64,000 bases of DNA from the NCBI RefSeq assembly GCF_053078305.1, contig NZ_CP166879.1, one strand, 5' to 3'. Shown piece after piece: positions 6,339-58,044 of this stretch. The position numbers and the translations under genes were made by a program. The notes under the pieces are model-generated. The model did not search any database, was not told where the DNA came from, and saw only the letters and a list, made by a program, of their open reading frames with translations. Each line of letters begins with the position of its first letter. The first letter of the stretch is position 1.

Positions 6339-9300
6339 TTACCACTGCCAGCCCACACCGGCACCGACGGAGAAATTACCCCGGGTGTTCTGACCTGCAT
6401 TCAGTTTCATTATCATCTTACCGTTATCGGAGATTCGGGACACACCTATTGCAATGGCGCTTTCACCACCATATCCACCGACACCCAGCCCCATCAGACT
6501 TTTACCCGGCAGATAGGCCTGAGGTATCCCGCTCATGGCCGCAGCCGATGCGCCAACACCACGGATATCCCGGTTAAGCTCTTCCACCCGGTAGCTCAGC
6601 TGACTGAATTTATTCCCGAGAGTGTTTATCGCCTGTGTATTTCCGGCAACCTGACGGTTAGTTGCATGCAACTGACTGCCATTGACGGCATCCGTTGAAT
6701 TCGCAGACAACACACCCGGTGCCACTGACTGCAGCTGACGCTCCTGTCCCGGCTGACCAAAAGAAACCACCGCAGTATCACTTCCGGTACGTCCCGCAAC
6801 AGCCTGACCGTTCAGGGCATAAGTCCCGGTATTCGCGCGGCCAGCACGGGCATGGCTGCCAACTGCAACAGAGCCGGCAGCAGCCTGACGCGTGACTTCA
6901 GCACCATTACCCATGGCAATGCTGTTTTGTCCCCGGGAAACGGCTCCCTGTCCGACAGCAATGCTGTCACGTCCTTCCGCTTTTGCTGCCTGACCGGAAG
7001 AGGCTGCTTTAAAATACTTCGTGCCTTCACGGTTCAGCATATTCACTGCATCAGCCACATTATCCGGTGTTTTATGTACACCACCATTCACCGTTGTCTT
7101 ACCGCCACCTGCAGTTGTCAGCTCACTGAAGGTGTCAGGAGCCAGCGCTGCTTTTCCGTCTTTCCAGACAACATTATCACCGCCAGCAATTCTGGCTGCA
7201 GATGCCAGCTGGCTCCCGTTAACCGCATCCGTGGATACCGGTGACACATTTCCGGCCGCCACATTTGTCAGAACAAGAGGCTGCTCACTGCTTATTCTGA
7301 CACGGGCCGGCTCAGCCGGCGTCATTGTCAGTTTCCCGGTCGCAGCATCTTCGGTCTGTGTGTAAAAACGACCTCCAATATTGACAAGCGGGTTCCCCTG
7401 GCTGTCGGTGTACTCCACCGGAATCCCCGTCACATCAATCTCATAGCTGTAATTTCCCTTGTCATCCTTACTGATGGCTGAAACCCGGGTATTCTGTCCG
7501 TGGCGGACTTCAACTGTCTGGGAAGAAACAGCAACAGCCTCATCACCGGATTCAGTCTTCAGTGCCCAGGTCGTTGCTGCCGTTGCCTGACTGATTTCAC
7601 GGTTCAGTTGTGAAACGTTAACGGCGTCCTGGTCATTCACCCCGTCTTTCACGCCGGAAATAACCCGGCCAGCCGCATCAATACCGTTCACAGTCACTGA
7701 CGGGCCATCCTTGATGGTCAGCCCGTTTTTATCCATCCGGGTTCCGCCGACAGAAACGCTGCCGTCATCTCCCAGGCGAATGTTATCAGCGAGTCTGACC
7801 GTCAGGCTCCCGTTCTGAACAGTCGTGCTGATATTCTGCCCGTCACCACCAACCGTGATATGCTTCCCGAGAGACGTGTTCACCTTGCTTCCGTCATCCG
7901 CCTGCAGACCAAAGCCGGTATTCACCAGTGCCGCACTGCTGTCACGGAGAGCATTTTTCAGGTCACCGATATTGGCCGCATTATTCAGAACATCTCCACC
8001 GGCGTCAGCAAGCGCAGTGCCGTTCAGACCACTGGCCACACTGGTTATCTGATTTCCACCGTTATTCAGGCCGGAGCCGGTAAGGGAAACCGTATTCCCC
8101 TGACCACCGCCCGCAGCAGGTGTTGTGATTGTGATGCCTTTATCATTAACTGTTGTTATCTGCCCACCTGTACCAAAAACCGCGCTGGCCAAATCACGGA
8201 GGTTTCTGGTCATCCTCACCAGAAGCCCGCCATTATCATTATCAACCCGGATATTGCCGTCAGTCACTTCAGCATTCTTCTCTGCACCACCTTTGATGGT
8301 CAGTTTTTCATTCAGTTTTTTATGAATAACCTTTCCGTCATCACCCTCAAAAGAAAGACCGTCATTCATGGTCGCCAGCTCTTCTGCCGGTGATTTTCCA
8401 TCCGGGGTATAAGTCAGACGTGTCTTCGTGGTACCGGCAGCATCTGTTAATCCACCTTTGCCTGCATTAACAGCAATGGTTGCTGACGCAGACTTTCCAC
8501 CCGCAGCAGGCGAGGATGTCAGTTTAATCGTGCCATCCTGACCATTCAGACTCACAGCCTCCTTACCATCAGCCCCGTTAACTTTGATGCTGCCGGGAGT
8601 ATTATTGCTCCCAACGCTCAGGTCATTATTCAGGGATATTTTTAACCCCTTATCCCCATTGGTGATGGCTGTGGTGGTGATATTGCTGTCCCCGGATACT
8701 TTAATCGCCTGCCCAAGAGACTGTTTCACTTCCTTATCATCAGAGTCTTTCAGTGCGAAACCTGCACCCTGCATACTGGAGGACACACCATCAATTGCCG
8801 TTTTCAGGTCTGCAACACTGGCGGCATTTTTCATCTCTTTATCAGTATTCGTTAACGTCGAAAGTTCCTTACCTTCCAGTCCACTTGCCACACCACTGAT
8901 AACAACACCATTTTGTCCGGCACCATTACCGCCTGACAATGTCAGCTTATTACCTTCGGATGAGAGCGTTACACTTCCGTTATTTCCTTTTCCATTCAGC
9001 TGAACACTGCTGAATGACGGAGTATCAATAACAGAGAATGTAAAATCACCACCACTTTGTTTCACGCTGAGATTTTTACCGGCTTTCAGCGTAACCATAT
9101 CACCGGGTTTTATCAGTGTTTCTGTTCCCTGACCATTTCCCTCGATAACACCACCGGTATCTTTATCCGCTTTAATTTTCCAGCCAGACTGGTTTATGGC
9201 ATCAGCAATGTTTTTCGCAGTAACAAGTTTATCGCCATCACCATTGTTTACTGTAATCTTCCCGTTACCACCATTTACAGGCAACGAAGCTGTCTCTGCT

Positions 9301-10670
9301 GAAATCTCCAGTTTATCTCCAGCCACCTGGGTTTTTATTGGGCCTTTGCCAGTGATTTCGACATTGTCACCAAGACTCTTCGTCAGCGTCTTACCATCTC
9401 CACCTTTAATTTTGATGGCATCATTTTTTATTTCATTTTTCAGCGTTGTTCCGTCAATCGTCATTCCTTTATCATTAACAGTAACTGCAATATCTCCATC
9501 ACCTTTAACAGTTAAAGTGTTACCATTCTTATTATCCTTCCCACCATTAATAGTCGCAGAACCTCCCTTATCATCCTTTAGCGTCCACGTCGGATTAATG
9601 GCATCAAGGTCATCTTTCAGTGTCTTCGCTATCGCATATAACTGACTACCGTTAATGGCATCTGTACTTGTGTCAGAAATCGCACCCGCCCCCACGTTAA
9701 CAATCTGACGCTCTTTACCCGCATCACCAACAGATACTACTGATGCTGCGTTATTTCCGGCAAAGCCACTATATGTGACTTCCGCGCCTCTTTTAGTTCT
9801 GACCTTAGCCTCTGTTACTTTTTGTGCCTGCTTATCCCTGGAGTCAGCGCCGATGGACACGTTCCCCTTTGCGACAGTAACGGTTGCTCCATGCCCCAGG
9901 GCAACCGTTTCATTCTGAGCGGCATTTGCCTCTGAACCAACAGCAAGAGCATCGTTTTTATTTGCAGAGGACTGACTACCAACGGCCAGAGCATTACCGG
10001 CATTAGCCAGCGCATTAAAACCAACCGCAGTCGCCATATCCCCTTTAGCTTCCGCCGTGGCTCCAATTGCATTCGAGGCCATCCCCTCAGCAGAACTCAC
10101 CGAACCAAGCGATACTGACAATTCGCCTTTAGCAAAAGTTCTGCTGCCCAGCGCAATACTGCCATCCCCCTGCGCTTCCGATGCAAGATAGCCATTCTCT
10201 ATTTTTTCCCGACCATAAGTCTTACCATGCAAAGGAGTTAAATCATCCCCACCAATAACAATAGCCCCCCATCCGGTAGCTTTGGTATCGCCACCTATTG
10301 CAATTGACTGTTCTTTAGTTGCTTTCGTTTTCGCTCCTATCGCAATAGACTCGCCTGTGTACAAACCTTCCTTCGTGCTAATGTCACCTCCAGCCTCTGC
10401 ACTGGTACCAATCGCGATAGAGTTACGTCCTTCAGCCACCGGTGATTTATGGTCGAAATTAATTCCCTTTGATTCATCTTTTGCTGTAAATTTCGTTGTA
10501 CCTATTTCAATGCTCTTCCAGTCATCGCCATAGACATCATGGCCAAGGCTGGTTTCATCAACTTCAACAGTTAACTTATTTGTATCTGCCTGAGCACTGA
10601 CCTGTGATATGGATGCCGGATTAAGAACAAGTGATATGGCTATACAGATATGTTTTTTTCTGAGGTTCAT
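6339..10670 (-). CDS. Trimeric autotransporter adhesin (type Vc, YadA-like anchor)
   Basis: 1443 aa from ATG at 10670 (AAGGAG RBS); repeated neck/head motifs (DAINGSQL, DAVNGSQL, NVSQLN); C-terminal anchor ending GNFSVGAGVGWQW. Confidence 0.9.
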   Translation of the reverse strand: MNLRKKHICIAISLVLNPASISQVSAQADTNKLTVEVDETSLGHDVYGDDWKSIEIGTTKFTAKDESKGINFDHKSPVAEGRNSIAIGTSAEAGGDISTKEGLYTGESIAIGAKTKATKEQSIAIGGDTKATGWGAIVIGGDDLTPLHGKTYGREKIENGYLASEAQGDGSIALGSRTFAKGELSVSLGSVSSAEGMASNAIGATAEAKGDMATAVGFNALANAGNALAVGSQSSANKNDALAVGSEANAAQNETVALGHGATVTVAKGNVSIGADSRDKQAQKVTEAKVRTKRGAEVTYSGFAGNNAASVVSVGDAGKERQIVNVGAGAISDTSTDAINGSQLYAIAKTLKDDLDAINPTWTLKDDKGGSATINGGKDNKNGNTLTVKGDGDIAVTVNDKGMTIDGTTLKNEIKNDAIKIKGGDGKTLTKSLGDNVEITGKGPIKTQVAGDKLEISAETASLPVNGGNGKITVNNGDGDKLVTAKNIADAINQSGWKIKADKDTGGVIEGNGQGTETLIKPGDMVTLKAGKNLSVKQSGGDFTFSVIDTPSFSSVQLNGKGNNGSVTLSSEGNKLTLSGGNGAGQNGVVISGVASGLEGKELSTLTNTDKEMKNAASVADLKTAIDGVSSSMQGAGFALKDSDDKEVKQSLGQAIKVSGDSNITTTAITNGDKGLKISLNNDLSVGSNNTPGSIKVNGADGKEAVSLNGQDGTIKLTSSPAAGGKSASATIAVNAGKGGLTDAAGTTKTRLTYTPDGKSPAEELATMNDGLSFEGDDGKVIHKKLNEKLTIKGGAEKNAEVTDGNIRVDNDNGGLLVRMTRNLRDLASAVFGTGGQITTVNDKGITITTPAAGGGQGNTVSLTGSGLNNGGNQITSVASGLNGTALADAGGDVLNNAANIGDLKNALRDSSAALVNTGFGLQADDGSKVNTSLGKHITVGGDGQNISTTVQNGSLTVRLADNIRLGDDGSVSVGGTRMDKNGLTIKDGPSVTVNGIDAAGRVISGVKDGVNDQDAVNVSQLNREISQATAATTWALKTESGDEAVAVSSQTVEVRHGQNTRVSAISKDDKGNYSYEIDVTGIPVEYTDSQGNPLVNIGGRFYTQTEDAATGKLTMTPAEPARVRISSEQPLVLTNVAAGNVSPVSTDAVNGSQLASAARIAGGDNVVWKDGKAALAPDTFSELTTAGGGKTTVNGGVHKTPDNVADAVNMLNREGTKYFKAASSGQAAKAEGRDSIAVGQGAVSRGQNSIAMGNGAEVTRQAAAGSVAVGSHARAGRANTGTYALNGQAVAGRTGSDTAVVSFGQPGQERQLQSVAPGVLSANSTDAVNGSQLHATNRQVAGNTQAINTLGNKFSQLSYRVEELNRDIRGVGASAAAMSGIPQAYLPGKSLMGLGVGGYGGESAIAIGVSRISDNGKMIMKLNAGQNTRGNFSVGAGVGWQW

Positions 10671-11307
10671 ATATACCCTCTTTTCTCCTTTATTTTCTTC
10701 CACTCAGTCGGAATAGCATAAAAATCATGCATGAATATTATGTAAGGTGGACTACCTTCATTTCTTCAGCATCCATTTTTTATAAAGCCAGAAGTGAACA
10801 AAACGGGAACCATTAAAAAGCAGACAAAAGGCAATAAAGTGATTTATAATAATGCAAACATAAAACATATTAAGTTTAAGTAAACTACCCGACATTACGC
10901 GTTACAGCAGAATGCAGGTACACTACCTGCCATTGCCTGACGCACTGGCGAAGGCAGTAAAAATGAGATACATTTCACTTCGCAGCAAAAAAAACGAAAT
11001 CCTGCAATTTTTCTGATTTTACTGACAGAAAAGCCCGAGAGTTAAATTTAAATAACTTAAAAGATTCTGTGGTATAATCAGGTTCATACAGGCCTGATTG
11101 TTTCACAGGAAATTAAATCTTTTAAATCAACAGGCTATGGAGGTGTAATGGTGATGAATTGTGTAAAGATAGAGTGTGAGTATAACTGGAGTAATAAAAC
11201 CAAATTAAAATTATCAATATTTAACAAATGTAATTTATTAAGTTTATTTTTATCAAAATTAAAAGCATTACAACCTGGAAGCTGACGTTACTGATTACTA
11301 TACTGGT

Positions 11308-11343: not shown

Positions 11344-13392
11344 TCAGAAGGATATTCTTACATTAGCCCAGTAACGACGTCCTTCATCGACCTGCCAGTT
11401 ACCATCAATGGTATCGATATCTTCGCTCTTTCTGTCTGTGACGTTAAGTACGGCAAAATTAATCAGCGTGCCTGGCAGGAACTGGTAATTCATACCAATA
11501 TCCATAGAAGTGAATCCATTACGAACACGGGGAACCTTGGCACCATTTCTTTGTGCTGCCCAGATTTGTTTTCCTGTATAATTCAGAGATGAATAAAATG
11601 TAATATCCTGAGTGTAATCCCATTCCAGTTTTGCATTGGCTGCATGTCTGGGAGTTCTTTCCAGAGGTTCCCCTTTCAGCGACTTGCCATTGAGACTTTC
11701 GTCATCGCTTTCTCGACGGGAGTCAGTGAATGTATAGTTTGCAGATACACGCCATTTATCATACACAGGAATCTGAGTTGCAAGCTCCACACCTCTGATA
11801 TTTGCCTCACCCACATTATCATAAATAAAAGTGTTTAGCCCAGTGACTGGATCTTTTGTGCCTATATCGTAACTGGTCAGCTTATTTTTAAAATCTGTAT
11901 TAAACAGAGTCGCGCTTGCTGAAAAACCACTGTCATTATTATAAATAATACCGATCTCTTCGGTTACACTGGTCTCCGGTTTCAGGTCCCTGTTTCCATA
12001 CATAATAGAGGCACCACCCTGCGTCAGTGTTCCAAATCCAGGACTGACCTCACGAATCGAAGGGGCCCGAAATGCTTTTGCGATCCCTCCTTTGAGAGTG
12101 AGATTATCGGTCAGGTTATAAACAGCATACAATCTTGGATTCCAGTAACTGCCATAGATTTCATGGTTATCGAGGCGCAACCCTCCAGTCAGGGCGAGAG
12201 AATCCGTTGCAGCATATTCATTTTCTATAAAAACAGCTTTCTGTTTAACTGAAACAGACTGTGTTTCTGTCGTTTTTTTACCTGTGGCTGAGTCATCACG
12301 GAGTTCTGCATGCTGAAATTGACCTCCGATGGTCAGCACATTTTCCGGCAGAAATGCCGTCACTTTTGCATCTATGATCGTGTTGGTTATTTCCGGTTTT
12401 CTTGACTCGTAATTAAGATCCCAATGATTATATTTATCTTTTTTACCAGATTTAACCTCACGAATAACTTTCTCCTGATAAACAGCAATTTCAGGATGCA
12501 GTATTTCGCCCTGGGCATTCCATGCTGCTACCCAGTGACTACGTGAGTTATGTGTTTCTCTTTTACTGTTTGGTTGTTTAAGATTTCCCCGCATAGTCCA
12601 GGCATCAAGAGAATCACCAGGTGTTAATGTATGTTCCTGGTTATTTTTTCCGTATTCAAAAACAAACTTCTGGCTTTCAGTCGGAGTAAACTGGAGTGTT
12701 GCCGTTATATTCTTATTATCTTTTGCTGGTGTTCCCTGAGAGATACTATCTTCCTTGCGATAGTTCATTCCTCCATATAACTGAAGACCAAGTTTATCCT
12801 TAACCAATGGGCCTGACAGGTAGAAGTCATTCGTGGTTGAGTTACCAAATTTCCCATGTTCCTGAATAATTCCCCCAAGCCCAAGTACGCCATCCCATGT
12901 CTGGTTATTAACAGGTTTGGTTATGATATTAATAACTCCTCCGATAGCATCGGAACCATACAGGGAAGACATAGGGCCACGTATAACTTCAATACGCTCA
13001 ATTGCTTCCACAGGAGGGATAAATCCGGCTTCAAAACCGCCGCTGCCGTTTGGTCTGGATTCCCGACCACTCTGACGTCGTCCATCGACCAGAATCAATG
13101 TATAATCGCCACTTAACCCACGTATACTGATATCCGGTTTTTCATTCCCACCGGTGATACTAATCCCTTCAACATCTTTTACCGCATCGACCAGGTCTGA
13201 AACCGGTTTTTTTTGCAGTTGCTCTGAAGTAATGACTGAAACACTGGCCGGTGCATTTCTGAGTTGCTGAGTGAAGCCGGAGGCAGTAACAACAAGCGTA
13301 TCTTCTTTTTTATCAGAACTGGCATAACCTGATGATATGACTGCAGAACATATCACGGCAATGCCCGGAGCAATGATATATTTGTTCTTCAT
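11344..13392 (-). CDS. ireA: TonB-dependent outer membrane siderophore receptor, IreA-like
   Basis: 682 aa from ATG at 13392 (RBS AAGGGA); signal peptide, plug and beta-barrel features, C-terminal aromatic residue; N-terminus matches my recollection of E. coli IreA; Fur box upstream. Confidence 0.8.
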   Translation of the reverse strand: MKNKYIIAPGIAVICSAVISSGYASSDKKEDTLVVTASGFTQQLRNAPASVSVITSEQLQKKPVSDLVDAVKDVEGISITGGNEKPDISIRGLSGDYTLILVDGRRQSGRESRPNGSGGFEAGFIPPVEAIERIEVIRGPMSSLYGSDAIGGVINIITKPVNNQTWDGVLGLGGIIQEHGKFGNSTTNDFYLSGPLVKDKLGLQLYGGMNYRKEDSISQGTPAKDNKNITATLQFTPTESQKFVFEYGKNNQEHTLTPGDSLDAWTMRGNLKQPNSKRETHNSRSHWVAAWNAQGEILHPEIAVYQEKVIREVKSGKKDKYNHWDLNYESRKPEITNTIIDAKVTAFLPENVLTIGGQFQHAELRDDSATGKKTTETQSVSVKQKAVFIENEYAATDSLALTGGLRLDNHEIYGSYWNPRLYAVYNLTDNLTLKGGIAKAFRAPSIREVSPGFGTLTQGGASIMYGNRDLKPETSVTEEIGIIYNNDSGFSASATLFNTDFKNKLTSYDIGTKDPVTGLNTFIYDNVGEANIRGVELATQIPVYDKWRVSANYTFTDSRRESDDESLNGKSLKGEPLERTPRHAANAKLEWDYTQDITFYSSLNYTGKQIWAAQRNGAKVPRVRNGFTSMDIGMNYQFLPGTLINFAVLNVTDRKSEDIDTIDGNWQVDEGRRYWANVRISF

Positions 13393-13413
13393 AAATTTCC
13401 CTTTTCTAAAATC

Positions 13414-13432
13414 GTAATGATAATGATTTGCG
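13414..13432 (-). promoter_or_regulatory. Fur box upstream of the ireA-like gene
   Basis: AATGATAATGATT core matches 12 of 13 positions of the Fur consensus core AATGATAATCATT, 22-40 bp upstream of the start codon. Confidence 0.5.
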
Positions 13433-14158
13433 TTAGCAAGAAAAAATTTACAATGAACAGAAAGGAAGGTAAATAACATTTAGCTCATTCAGGTAACACT
13501 TTGAACCTGTCCGACTTGATGAGAATCAGCCCCTTTCTACGAGGGACTCCTTACTGTATAATTTATAGTCCTGTCGAAGAGGTAAAATCTTTCAACCGGA
13601 TATCTCCATAAACAGCATTCCAGTAAATCAAGCAAGAGTGAACAGGAGACTGGTGCTGTTTATTACGGTATGCTTGTCCGATGTGGTGGAAAATAAAAAT
13701 GGGCGACTGACCAGATATGGGAGTCTCCGGTCAGTCATTCGCTTGTAGATGCAGGACATAAGCGAACCAAGGCCCACTGCTTCTGCGCAAAAGCAAGGGG
13801 GAGTTTACCCTGGTAGATTGAGTTTCGCGTCACTGACCAGTCAGAGCTTCAGACTCATCTTACACCACTAACCCCCTTACCACTCCTGAATCTTCCCTCG
13901 GCAACAGCCAAGACAGTATCGTACTGTTCACCACCATCTTTTCCCGTGAATGACAGTAAGTGCAAAGCCCCAATATAAATCAGTACTTCCGATGACAGAC
14001 AGTGAAGGCGTAAGGTGAAATATGCACGTAAGGCAGTATGACTTTCCGTGAGACAGATGCTGTCCAACGTGGGATATTTAATGCGGGTTAACATCGTTGT
14101 CAGAGCCGCATGGGTGAGCTGTTGCTACCCCCCTGGAATTTCCACCACGGAGGCCAGC

Positions 14159-15245
14159 ATGAACAACAATAACATGTTGTACGTCGAATTAGATGTTCAC
14201 AAAGAATCGATTACTGTCTCCTATGCTATCAATTCAGAACCTGTTGAACTGATGGGTAAAATTAGCACATCACCTACTGACATTCATAATCTTTATCAAC
14301 GTATCAGGTCAAAGTCATCGCAGGTCAGTATCGTTTATAAAGCGGGACCCTGTGGTTATGGACTTTATCGTCGGCTGGTGAAATCCGGTTTTGACTGCAT
14401 GGTCTGCGCCCCCTCACTTATCCCGAAAAAACCGGGGGAGCGGGGTAAAACCGACACCGTGATGCCATCAGACTTGTGCGTTCACTGCGTGCAGGAGATC
14501 TTTCTGCTGTCTACGTATCCGGCGTTGAAGATGAGGCATTCCGGGATTTGGCCCGGGCATGGGCATCTGCCCGCGATGATTTACGGCATGCAAGGCAACG
14601 TCTGAAATCGTTTCTTCTGGTTCATGGGGTCCATTATGTCGGGCGAGCAGATTGGGGCCCTGCACACCGACACTGGCTCAGCAAATACTCATTCGAAAGT
14701 CCCTGGCGACAATTAGCTTTTGACGAACACCGTTGTACAATAGAAGACCGGCAGGCACAATGTGAACGGCTGGAATCCGCCCGAAGGAGGCCGTTACCGA
14801 ATGGAGGCTGTATCCGGTAGTAGAGGCGCAGCAAGCCATGCGAGGGATTCAGTTTATTACTGCGGTTGGATTAATTTCTGAACTGGGTGATCTGACCCGT
14901 TTTGAACATCCACGACAACTGATGTCATGGTTTGGTATCACGCCATCAGAATATTCATCGGGTGGAAGCAGACATCAGGGCAGCATTACCAAAGCCGGAA
15001 ACAGCTATGCCAGAAAGCTATTGGTTGAGGCAGCGTGGAGTTACCGGCATCCGACACGCATCAGTCCGGCAATACAAAAAATCAGGAAAATTTACCCCGC
15101 CCCGTCATTGACAGAGCATGGGATGCTCAACTCAGGCTTTGCAAGAGGTCTCGAAAACTTCAGGCCAAAGGAAAGAATGTCAATATTACAATTGTCGCTG
15201 TCGCACGTGAGCAGGTGGTTTTATCTGGGATATGGGGCGGGATAG
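14159..15245 (+). pseudogene. IS110-family transposase pseudogene (at least two frameshifts)
   Basis: Transposase-like translation is split over three frames (ORFs 14048..14605, 14476..14820, 14838..15245) with consecutive segments MLYVELDVHKESITV..., ...AVYVSGVEDEAFRDLARAWA..., ...FITAVGLISELGDLTRFEHPRQLMSWFGITPSEYSSGG... Confidence 0.7.
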
Positions 15246-15368
15246 CCACGTTTGTCGCACAATAACCACAATGTCACAAATAAAGAATGAGGATAACCAG
15301 TTCCCTGAAGGTGACGTAGCTCAGAACAAGAGTAACTCATGTTAGCTGTCTGGCGATGGCTGAAGTGG

Positions 15369-26400: not shown

Positions 26401-27765
26401 TTATGGCTGCCTCTCCTGATTGCCTGTGTGTTCCATCTGATAACGATTAATCAGCTGATTCAGTGCCATTTCAGCCTGTTTTTGCTGCTGTTCACTGCCA
26501 TTCTGATTACGGGCTTCATCATAGCGACGTAACTGCTCTTCTGCCGGGATATGCCGGTTAAAAGCCTGCATGATGCCAAACACCTCCGTTTTCAGTTCAC
26601 TGACCGTCATGTATTTTCCCCGCTGTTCATCCAGACGGTTCAGGCGCTCAGCCAGCTGCTGTAAGCGGGTCATGCCTTCGTTCCAGCCCGTCATCGCCTC
26701 TTCCGGAAGCGCTCGGCTCCTTACGCTCTTCTGCCAGTTATCCACCATTTCCTGAACACGGGGATTGTCGGGGAAAAGTCCCCTCAGTTGCTGCAGCAGC
26801 TGCGCACTGCGTTGCAGGTTGTATGCCGGCGGTAGTTCTGTCAGTCGCGTTATCTGCTGACCGGAAAGGGTTATCCACTCTGACGCATGATTTAACAGTG
26901 AGGGTGTTCTGCTGAGTTGCGCCATCTGGTCTGCTGAAAGCACATCCGGTAGTGGTGCCAGCAGCGCCCTGAGTTGCTGCTCCGCCGATGATGGCTGTGT
27001 CAGAAACTGCCATCCCGGAATGACCACGCTGACAGTCAGCAATGCCGCACAGACACCAGCCACAAACGGTTTCAGAAACGTGGGCGGGGATTTCTGAAGG
27101 GAGGGTGTGGGTTCTGCTTTTGTTTCAGAAACAACATACACCAGACGGGAGTACGGCAGGGGCTGATGTTCCTGTACATCCGGAGCATCAGACCGGAGTG
27201 CCTGAGCCGGAAGGGTTACCGGCGACGATACTTCACCCTGCACAGGCTGATTCTCCAGACGGGTGATATATCCCTTCACCATGGCTTCCGGTAAAGCCAC
27301 TTTACTGCTCTGTTTAAGTTCATGCCGGGCCAGTATGTCACTCAGCGTTTTCAGGCATGTTTCTGTCTGATACAGCAGGGGCAGATTGTCACGCTCATCC
27401 GGTGGCATGGCCCGGAGCGTTTTTTGCAGACGACTGAACAGACCGGTAATAATTTCCAGCCGGGCGTGGGTATTCAGCGGCCACATCACTGACCAGTGAT
27501 GCCGGGTCAGCGCCACAATCAGAGCCAGCCCTTCATTCAGACCACTTAACCCTGCTGTATGCATCCGGGCGATGGTGTACCAGGATACCGTCTGTAATTC
27601 CACGCCATTGTGTTCATACAGACGCAGGCAGAGCGTCTCCACATAACGCCAGTCCACATCCGGACGTGCCGGGTGAGTCAGCTTGCTGATTTCATCGCGC
27701 AGGGCAGCATAATCCGGTAATGACCGGGGGTCATTACCTGTTTTCAGTTTTACTTCAGAAGTCAT
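26401..27765 (-). CDS. T6SS-associated ImpA_N-domain membrane protein (VasL-like)
   Basis: 454 aa; N-terminal domain resembles the TssA N-terminus (DYAALRDEISKL...VSWYTIARMH versus TssA ...ATWYIWARL...) followed by one TM segment and a periplasmic region. Confidence 0.65.
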   Translation of the reverse strand: MTSEVKLKTGNDPRSLPDYAALRDEISKLTHPARPDVDWRYVETLCLRLYEHNGVELQTVSWYTIARMHTAGLSGLNEGLALIVALTRHHWSVMWPLNTHARLEIITGLFSRLQKTLRAMPPDERDNLPLLYQTETCLKTLSDILARHELKQSSKVALPEAMVKGYITRLENQPVQGEVSSPVTLPAQALRSDAPDVQEHQPLPYSRLVYVVSETKAEPTPSLQKSPPTFLKPFVAGVCAALLTVSVVIPGWQFLTQPSSAEQQLRALLAPLPDVLSADQMAQLSRTPSLLNHASEWITLSGQQITRLTELPPAYNLQRSAQLLQQLRGLFPDNPRVQEMVDNWQKSVRSRALPEEAMTGWNEGMTRLQQLAERLNRLDEQRGKYMTVSELKTEVFGIMQAFNRHIPAEEQLRRYDEARNQNGSEQQQKQAEMALNQLINRYQMEHTGNQERQP

Positions 27766-27819
27766 CGGCAGATTCAGTGTTGCTGTATCAAATCATAATT
27801 AATATTCCCGGAAAGAGCG

Positions 27820-28128
27820 TCAGTGTAATACCGGTACCCGGGAAAGGTATTCCACCGCACGGATGATTGCCGGTGTCACATCCCACCGCCGCTTCAGAAC
27901 CGCCAATAACTCACTGAGTGTTCTGATATAACGTTCAGTGAACAGTCGCTGCCCGTCCCTGGTTAAATGAAAACCGGACTGATTACAGGTAATGGTAATA
28001 TGGCAGGCATCATTACCAATATATACGGCTTCCTGTGGCCTGAATCTGACATTCCAGTGCCAGGAATACGGAGCATGATTCAGATAAAAAAGGCGCATCT
28101 GGATGTCATTAAATAACGGGTTCATCAT
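27820..28128 (-). CDS. Hypothetical protein within the T6SS operon (102 aa)
   Basis: ATG start; between tssE and the vasL-like gene; no recognisable motif. Confidence 0.5.
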   Translation of the reverse strand: MMNPLFNDIQMRLFYLNHAPYSWHWNVRFRPQEAVYIGNDACHITITCNQSGFHLTRDGQRLFTERYIRTLSELLAVLKRRWDVTPAIIRAVEYLSRVPVLH

Positions 28129-56344: not shown

Positions 56345-56789
56345 GAAATGTTCCTTTTCAACCCCTGTTGAATTTTGTCAAGCCGGTGCAGACACAGTAA
56401 AGCGCGCATCAACACCTGAAAGGTACGATACAAACACAAGTTACAAACAATAAGAACGGAAGGACAATTAATCAGTGAGGAATAATAACTAAATTAACCA
56501 AAAGAATGTTACTGACAATACTACCAATACTTAAATAGCAATATATTAATTAATGTAAGAACAGATGCCCGGTAAGACATATACACAATACATCCACAAA
56601 CACACTCTTTTCATTAAATCAATCACCTGATTAAACCATGAAAGTGTGATGTAAGTCAAAATTACTGACACTATCAATTGATAATGATTATCTCTATCAT
56701 TATCGTGAAATTCGAGAATGAAAGGAGAAGTAGTCATTATAAGCCTTTTATAAATCGTCATCATCATAGTAAAGTAGAACACTTTTTAT

Positions 56790-57260
56790 ATGAGTTACTA
56801 TATGAAAATATACTGGACAAGAAAACGCATTCCTGAACTTTCAGCACTTCCACCTTCATTAAGAAAGAAAAATTTTACTGACGCATATAATGCAGCATCT
56901 TCTCATATCGAATACTGGATAGGTGCTGGCGTCTCATTTATCTCGATGATGATTTTATCCAGAGTATATGACTTTCTTTTACCCGCCCAAGATACTTTCC
57001 CGGGTGATATCATCAGAAGTTTATGTGTTGTGTGTCCATCCATATTAATCTGGTTTCAGTTTTCGGTATATGTCATGAGGAAATATTACAGACATATTCT
57101 GGTGCGAGGAAAAGAAACCGAAACCATTTCAGAAAGGTTGATACGTGAGGCTGATACACGAGAATATGAACTATGGCGTCCGGTCCGTCGCTTTTTCTCC
57201 ATTATTTTTCTCATTATTCTATTAGTTTGCATTCATTCACTGATAACAACTATAAAATAA
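56790..57260 (+). CDS. Integral membrane protein of unknown function in the microcin locus (156 aa)
   Basis: Predicted TM segments (VSFISMMILSRVY, LCVVCPSILIWFQFSVYV, FFSIIFLIILLVCIHSLI); AT-rich. Confidence 0.5.
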   Translation: MSYYMKIYWTRKRIPELSALPPSLRKKNFTDAYNAASSHIEYWIGAGVSFISMMILSRVYDFLLPAQDTFPGDIIRSLCVVCPSILIWFQFSVYVMRKYYRHILVRGKETETISERLIREADTREYELWRPVRRFFSIIFLIILLVCIHSLITTIK

Positions 57261-57357: not shown

Positions 57358-58044
57358 ATGGAAATAACAAAAAATAAAAATGCAACTATAAAAAAACAGT
57401 CATCAGTCGGCTGCTTTTCAATGTTTACCTTATCATTTTCTATTACCTTTATTCCTGTATTCCTTACAAACAGGCAGGAACTTATATCCAGGGGACTTCT
57501 TGTTCCAGCATTATTTCTTGCTGAATTTCTAATTCTTGTTCCACTGTATTTTATTTTCTTCCGAAAAAGAGAAGGATTAGGAAGAGGCTCTTTTCGACTG
57601 GATGTTTTTTTTACTCTTTTCTCTTTAATAATGATTATTCAGTTATTTGTCCCTTATCTGCTGGCAGTGAGGAAAACGGAAGAATGGATGATCTCGCAAA
57701 TGTCTTTTTCCGGGGCCATTTTATGGATTAATATATTTTCTTCCGTACTTCTTGTTCCTGTATATGAAGAGATTGTATTTCGAGGGTGTCTTTTTAACTC
57801 TTTTAAATTCTGGTTTAATGACAATATTTACATCTCTGCTATTGTAACATCAGTCATATTTTCTGCATTACATCTACAATATACTGACTTTCGTACATTT
57901 TTGATGCTCTTTCTGATATCGTTAGTTCTTATCAGTGCAAAAATAAAGTCGAATGGCCTGTTAATGCCCATATTACTTCACATGGCGATGAATGCAGTCA
58001 TAACAGGAATACAATATACGTTACAATATCACATAACAGTCTGA
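57358..58044 (+). CDS. CPBP-family (CAAX protease / Abi) intramembrane metalloprotease, MceF/McmM-like microcin accessory protein
   Basis: 228 aa; the three CPBP motifs are present (YEEIVFRG, FSALHLQY, LHMAMNAV); polytopic. Confidence 0.8.
   Translation: MEITKNKNATIKKQSSVGCFSMFTLSFSITFIPVFLTNRQELISRGLLVPALFLAEFLILVPLYFIFFRKREGLGRGSFRLDVFFTLFSLIMIIQLFVPYLLAVRKTEEWMISQMSFSGAILWINIFSSVLLVPVYEEIVFRGCLFNSFKFWFNDNIYISAIVTSVIFSALHLQYTDFRTFLMLFLISLVLISAKIKSNGLLMPILLHMAMNAVITGIQYTLQYHITV

Follow-up and report, generated by a model that had tools for sequence, protein, structure and literature searches.

Fur operator next to the start codon of ireA in an Escherichia coli genome and a candidate promoter layout around it

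The window analysed here (64,000 nucleotides of contig NZ_CP166879.1, RefSeq assembly GCF_053078305.1) carries on its minus strand a gene that an initial annotation, made from the sequence alone, had described as encoding an IreA-like receptor. The gene is ireA itself: its product scores 1513.8 bits against the NCBIfam equivalog profile NF010011 (IreA family TonB-dependent siderophore receptor; cut-off 1197), the alignment runs end to end (protein residues 1-682 on profile positions 1-682), and RefSeq applies the name ireA, with the same start codon, to a locus 99.7% identical to this one. The protein shares 99% amino acid identity with the ExPEC allele (547 residues compared). Read from the translation, residues 1-24 form a signal-peptide-like N-terminus and are followed by DTLVVTA, which we take to be the TonB box from the known consensus for such boxes (Table 1). 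IreA is a virulence-associated siderophore receptor of ExPEC, APEC and STEC and a vaccine candidate, and its control by iron therefore matters for the timing of antigen display. Russo et al. 2001 is said to be the original paper on the gene.

Downstream of ireA lies a gene for a 1454-aa YadA-like trimeric autotransporter (6339-10703, minus strand), and the region upstream (13500-15300) holds remnants of IS110 and IS66 elements; in both respects, the neighbourhood is unlike that of ireA in strain CFT073. When a 20-kb stretch was used as a query, the best complete-genome matches had ~96% identity over 79-90% of its length, and no full-length match of high identity was found among the complete E. 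coli genomes in the collection. The best-matching genomes come mostly from human clinical isolates, with one from food.

The ATG chosen in the initial annotation (13392) is correct. RefSeq places the start at the equivalent position in all loci opened (IBS28, EV36, 20Ec-P-124 and CFT073; PGAP start), and the Shine-Dalgarno-like block before it is aligned, as AGGGA or AGGG, in most of the 14 upstream sequences compared below (alignment A2), with one G column invariant and a second conserved in at least 90%. An open in-frame ATG is also present at 13479, and had translation begun there, the protein would have 711 residues and the apparent Fur box would be coding sequence. In CFT073, however, a TGA directly follows that ATG and a 1-nt indel breaks the frame, so the longer reading frame is not conserved; the family profile begins at M1 (13392), and the N-terminus read from 13392 is a typical signal peptide with the TonB box after it. 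The upstream ATG also lies ahead of the predicted transcription start. We assign a miscalled start a negligible probability.

Table 1 Features of the ireA locus in window coordinates
Feature	Position	Strand	Basis or remark
ireA coding sequence, 682 aa + stop	11344-13392	-	ORF and translation, NCBIfam profile, RefSeq
TonB box DTLVVTA (presumed), residues 31-37	13282-13302	-	Read from translation
ireA start codon ATG	13390-13392	-	RefSeq annotation; Providencia orthologues start at the aligned position
Shine-Dalgarno-like AGGGA (GGG/AGGGA), 5-6 nt before ATG	13398-13402	-	Read from sequence
19-bp Fur box GCTAACGCAAATCATTATC	13437-13419	-	Best register, 15/19 to GATAATGATAATCATTATC; -45 to -27 from ATG
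Second Fur-box register CGTAATGATAATGATTTGC	13413-13431	+	14/19, 14.7 bits; shifted 6 bp, opposite strand
Predicted transcription start G13437 +/-1	13436-13438	-	From position of predicted -10; leader ~45 nt
Predicted -10: TG (13452-13451), then TAAATT (13450-13445)	13445-13452	-	Sigma-70 matrix, alignment
Predicted -35 TTTACC, 17 bp from TAAATT	13468-13473	-	Sigma-70 matrix; overlaps invariant ATTTA
Alternative candidate promoter TTGCTA (13439-13434), 17 bp, TACGAT (13416-13411)	13411-13439	-	Sigma-70 matrix; this allele only
Upstream in-frame ATG of mechanical 711-aa ORF (13479-11344)	13477-13479	-	Not the real start

The Fur motif that had been noted near the ireA start is real. The 13-mer AATGATAATGATT has one exact match in the 64-kb window (13416-13428, plus strand) and spans -36 to -24 relative to the A of the ireA ATG, the gene lying on the minus strand; the motif had been placed 22-40 bp upstream of the ATG, and its upstream location holds, with 24-36 bp as the measured distance for the 13-mer. 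We took as a Fur box any sequence that matches the 19-bp GATAATGATAATCATTATC or contains at least three adjacent NATWAT hexamers. At ireA, the hexamers CATTAT, CATTAC and GATTTT stand in a row, and the array lies directly downstream of, or within, every plausible promoter of this iron-homeostasis gene. The description of the motif as near-consensus suits its core and is generous for the 19-bp box as a whole, which departs from GATAATGATAATCATTATC at four positions. Fur operators usually show overlapping registers 6 bp apart (described by the hexamer and 7-1-7 models), and two such registers can be read here.

Sequence statistics alone make this box suggestive, not decisive. Matches to AATGATAATGATT with at most one mismatch were expected 0.24 times per shuffled window and observed twice, the second being a Fur box at 56677. 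We derived a weight matrix from the Fur sites of CFT073 genes other than ireA (12 independent, non-redundant sites); it gave the ireA box 14.4 bits in the GCTAACGCAAATCATTATC register and 14.7 bits in the CGTAATGATAATGATTTGC register. First-order Markov sequences of 64 kb contain on average ~0.9 positions with such a score (~0.001 per given 100 bp); the real window has seven, at four loci. An AT-rich match arising by chance and having no regulatory role would be in keeping with this random expectation of nearly one position per window, and with a comparable match (14279-14297) inside an IS110 pseudogene that is probably such a chance occurrence. Against it stand the two overlapping registers and the evidence from position, conservation and published ChIP-seq described below, which settles what the sequence statistics leave doubtful.

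The other high-scoring loci of the window can be described briefly. The strongest Fur box, GATAGAGATAATCATTATC (56674-56704), matches at 17 of 19 positions, scores 19.9 bits and has overlapping registers; it lies ~90 bp upstream of an ORF for a 156-aa membrane protein (56790-57260), after which comes a gene for a CPBP-family intramembrane endopeptidase (57358-58044). In E. coli, a locus with 99.8% identity continues with mchF and a HlyD-family gene, both for microcin export, and carries type VI secretion genes on the opposite side; the region may be an iron-regulated unit for microcin immunity or maturation. In strain JNEC-KY174, ~850 kb separate the microcin/type VI secretion locus from that of ireA; in the window, both fall within 45 kb. 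A second Fur-like sequence, GACATTCATAATCTTTATC (14279-14297; 15/19, 14.8 bits), stands ~900 bp upstream of ireA inside a frameshifted transposase pseudogene of the IS110 family and is probably a chance match. A third, TCAAATCATAATTAATATT (27788-27806; 14.9 bits), occupies the short gap between two minus-strand ORFs, of 454 aa (26401-27765) and 102 aa (27820-28128), in a cluster that looks like type VI secretion when the ORF translations are read by inspection.

Fur occupancy has been measured in CFT073 on a sequence identical to the box described here. In the Fur ChIP-seq peak at ireA (c5174) of that strain, the motif found with FIMO is GCTAACGCAAATCATTATC, letter for letter as in the window, at positions 157-175 of NC_004431.1:4935789-4936098 (Banerjee et al., mBio 2020, PMC7157518, Table S5B). 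We verified these coordinates on the fetched sequence: the motif occupies 4935945-4935963 and the ireA ATG is at 4935990, which puts the box at -45 to -27, as in the window, and the reported summit (4935947) within it. The peak has a height of 1485 at that summit, and ireA was classed as a direct Fur target (PMC7157518). The same authors found 39-fold more ireA RNA after loss of fur and 45-fold more in a strain lacking both fur and ryhB, against no change when ryhB alone was missing, and IreA protein increased 185-fold in the strain without fur (PMC7157518). In APEC strain DE205B, ireA was 6.5-fold up in iron-depleted medium.

These data rule against the chance-match reading, which we regard as very improbable and effectively refuted: the summit of a Fur ChIP-seq peak falls on the identical sequence, the gene is derepressed 39-fold when fur is lost, and the box is invariant among diverged ireA alleles and found at the same position in Providencia. 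The box at 13437-13419 is almost certainly a functional Fur operator of ireA. The iron repression that had been predicted from the motif is supported, since the same 19-mer lies beneath the CFT073 peak and deletion of fur derepresses the gene. Given the published ChIP-seq, RNA and protein data, repression by iron through the identical operator is already known, and neither the operator nor the iron control of ireA is new. Our analysis adds that this allele has kept the operator intact and that its start codon was called correctly, and it proposes a layout of promoter and transcription start that can be tested and appears to be shared by Providencia and E. coli.

Conservation of the box was examined over 651 bp around the start; of 5426 complete E. 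coli genomes, 341 have an ireA locus matching this stretch. Three upstream contexts were found. The type present in the window (at least 99% identical) occurs in 19 genomes, and the ExPEC-type context is ~85% identical to it over 650 bp. In the third (147 of the 341 genomes), homology to the window does not reach upstream of 13492, which lies 100 bp ahead of the ATG; in both genomes of this type that were opened, IS2 abuts that position, with its transposase gene reading away from ireA. Within the 100 bp before the ATG, about ten positions and an indel differ among the three contexts, and more differences lie beyond, but the 27 nt TTGCTAACGCAAATCATTATCATTACG are invariant across all three. The IS2 insertion leaves the block comprising the predicted -35, the predicted -10 and the Fur box attached to ireA and replaces everything further upstream.

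The CFT073 operator belongs to the same gene, consists of the same 19-mer within the same 27 nt and has the same distance to the ATG (-45 to -27). The two alleles differ by four substitutions (13412, 13411, 13407 and 13405) clustered in the 8 bp that follow the box and by an upstream run that is one base shorter in the window. The interval from the Fur box to the ribosome-binding site includes positions 13405-13412, which read ATTTTAGA here and CCTTTGGC in CFT073, EV36 and 20Ec-P-124. The former adds a fourth hexamer-like element, GATTTT, and creates a -10-like TACGAT; the latter forms a tiny inverted repeat, GCC-TTT-GGC.

Promoter candidates were scored with a simple sigma-70 matrix, with hexamer frequencies that we supplied, and the 120 bp upstream of the ATG from two E. 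coli alleles and 12 Providencia loci were aligned with MAFFT (alignment A2). The pair TTTACC-17-TAAATT, upstream of the Fur box, has the top score in both E. coli alleles (10.07 in the window). With TTTATT-18-TAnTAT as its Providencia equivalent, it alone among the candidates recurs in all 14 sequences. Besides the core of the Fur box, the alignment has as invariant positions the block ATTTA (13474-13470), T13452, G13451, A13448 and T13444, and the last four would correspond to the TG, A-11 and T-7 of an extended -10 element. The -10 can alternatively be read as TGt followed by AAATTT (13449-13444): the spacing of an extended -10 element fits TGtAAATTT (13452-13444), in which A-11 and T-7 are present and T-12 is absent, and the TG is directly adjacent if the hexamer is TAAATT. 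TAAATT and TTTACC have only four matches in six each. The IS2 junction at 13492 corresponds to about -55 from the predicted start and leaves the TTTACC/TAAATT block joined to ireA.

With this layout, the box would be located at the transcription start or immediately beyond it, and with a leader of ~45 nt the seeming difficulty of a very short one would disappear. The initial annotation had read the closeness of the motif to the ATG as a sign either of such a leader or of a start or promoter layout other than the one it had called; the start codon stands unchanged, and it is the promoter layout that most likely differs, with a conserved candidate upstream of the box. A literature search found no mapped ireA transcription start, and the layout (TTTACC-17-TAAATT, start at about G13437) is therefore a prediction, which we favour with moderate confidence. 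A consensus scan for promoters and terminators over 13300-13900 gave an intragenic candidate only and none upstream of the ATG at the thresholds used, a result without bearing on a promoter that is weak and regulated by iron. Hexamers resembling a -10 (TATCAT, CATTAT) also occur within the AT-rich Fur box; these were set aside, as they come without a usable -35 in E. coli.

The first promoter considered was a different one, TTGCTA-17-TACGAT, in which the same Fur operator would form the spacer, transcription would start at about A13404 and the leader would be ~12 nt long, the very short leader envisaged in the initial annotation. A Fur box that overlaps the -35 and -10 hexamers or lies between them is a classic arrangement, and in the window, this pair scores 9.71 against 10.07 for the upstream candidate. 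It was demoted because its -10 reads TACGCC in CFT073, EV36 and 20Ec-P-124 and thus lacks the essential T at -7; since the CFT073 fur mutant expresses ireA strongly despite TACGCC, the pair cannot be the shared promoter. Neither hexamer is conserved in Providencia, and it would be unusual for a leader to have only 12 nt, with the ribosome-binding site beginning at +4. We consider it unlikely that ireA is transcribed from this pair, and equally doubtful that this allele has gained it as a second, Fur-embedded promoter through two changes that CFT073-type alleles lack. If it has, the mRNA made from it would have a ~12-nt leader, and expression or derepression might differ from that of ExPEC alleles.

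Returning to the upstream pair TTTACC-17-TAAATT, the following mechanism can be proposed. When iron is sufficient, Fe2+-Fur dimers would bind the NATWAT-like hexamers arrayed over 13437-13411 in two overlapping 19-bp registers; with this array sitting on the ireA promoter, RNA polymerase would be kept from forming a productive complex. When iron is scarce, Fur would leave and ireA would be transcribed. Transcription would start at about G13437, placing the operator at about +1 to +27, within the region that RNA polymerase has to occupy. The mRNA would carry an ordinary, unstructured leader of ~45 nt, with the ribosome-binding site at 13402-13398 and the ATG at 13392. We infer the steric mechanism, the exact promoter hexamers and the transcription start; taken as a whole, a Fur operator of ireA is very likely the explanation of the motif, and this layout its most likely promoter arrangement.

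Other forms of control were considered for the same region. The predicted 45-nt leader, folded together with the first codons, has a free energy of -3.7 kcal/mol (z = +0.7) and hence no significant structure, which rules against an attenuator or riboswitch-like element in it. Scanning 13200-14300 against Rfam gave nothing beyond two sub-threshold eukaryotic families, both chance matches. A divergent upstream gene sharing the operator was also rejected, as only IS110/IS66 remnants lie upstream here; in ExPEC, an 'inovirus Gp2 family' gene on the same strand is found upstream of ireA.

The closest relatives of IreA outside E. coli are in Providencia (58-61% amino acid identity), followed by Budvicia, Leminorella and Limnobaculum (57-58%) and Pasteurellaceae (44-52%); matches in Citrobacter, Raoultella and Enterobacter are only 37-40% identical. 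The nearest relatives are found in Providencia, Budvicia, Leminorella and Limnobaculum and not among close relatives of Escherichia, and the promoter region too aligns with that of Providencia, a pattern consistent with horizontal acquisition of ireA together with its promoter. The 120 bp ahead of the IreA-family genes of P. alcalifaciens, P. rettgeri, P. rustigianii and other Providencia align with those of E. coli and share their order: ATTTA block, TG with a -10-like hexamer, Fur box, AGGGA, ATG. Most Providencia IreA-family genes have their Fur box at -42 to -24, with up to 17 of 19 matches (GATAATGATAATCATAATG). Unlike in E. coli, the Providencia boxes are closer to consensus and the -10 is a canonical extended element, TGnTAnTAT. 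Relatives more distant than Providencia have weaker Fur-like matches (12-15/19), located further upstream.

Within CFT073, the ireA box can be compared with the operators of other iron-uptake genes. Like ireA, chuT, hma, iucA, sitA, iroN and chuA are preceded by 19-bp boxes that match GATAATGATAATCATTATC. In Table S5B, the ireA box ranks with the weaker matches: its left half, GCTAACGCA, is degenerate, and its FIMO q-value is 0.00057, compared with 3.7e-5 for chuA, iucA and sitA (PMC7157518). When the published motif coordinates were set against the RefSeq start codons, the nearest edge of the box fell at -24 for chuT, -27 for ireA, -36 for hma and -43 for iucA, and at -77 for sitA, -94 for iroN and -291 for chuA. 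The closeness of the ireA box to its ATG is therefore not unusual, since the boxes of chuT (-42 to -24), hma (-54 to -36) and iucA (-61 to -43) lie comparably close to their start codons.
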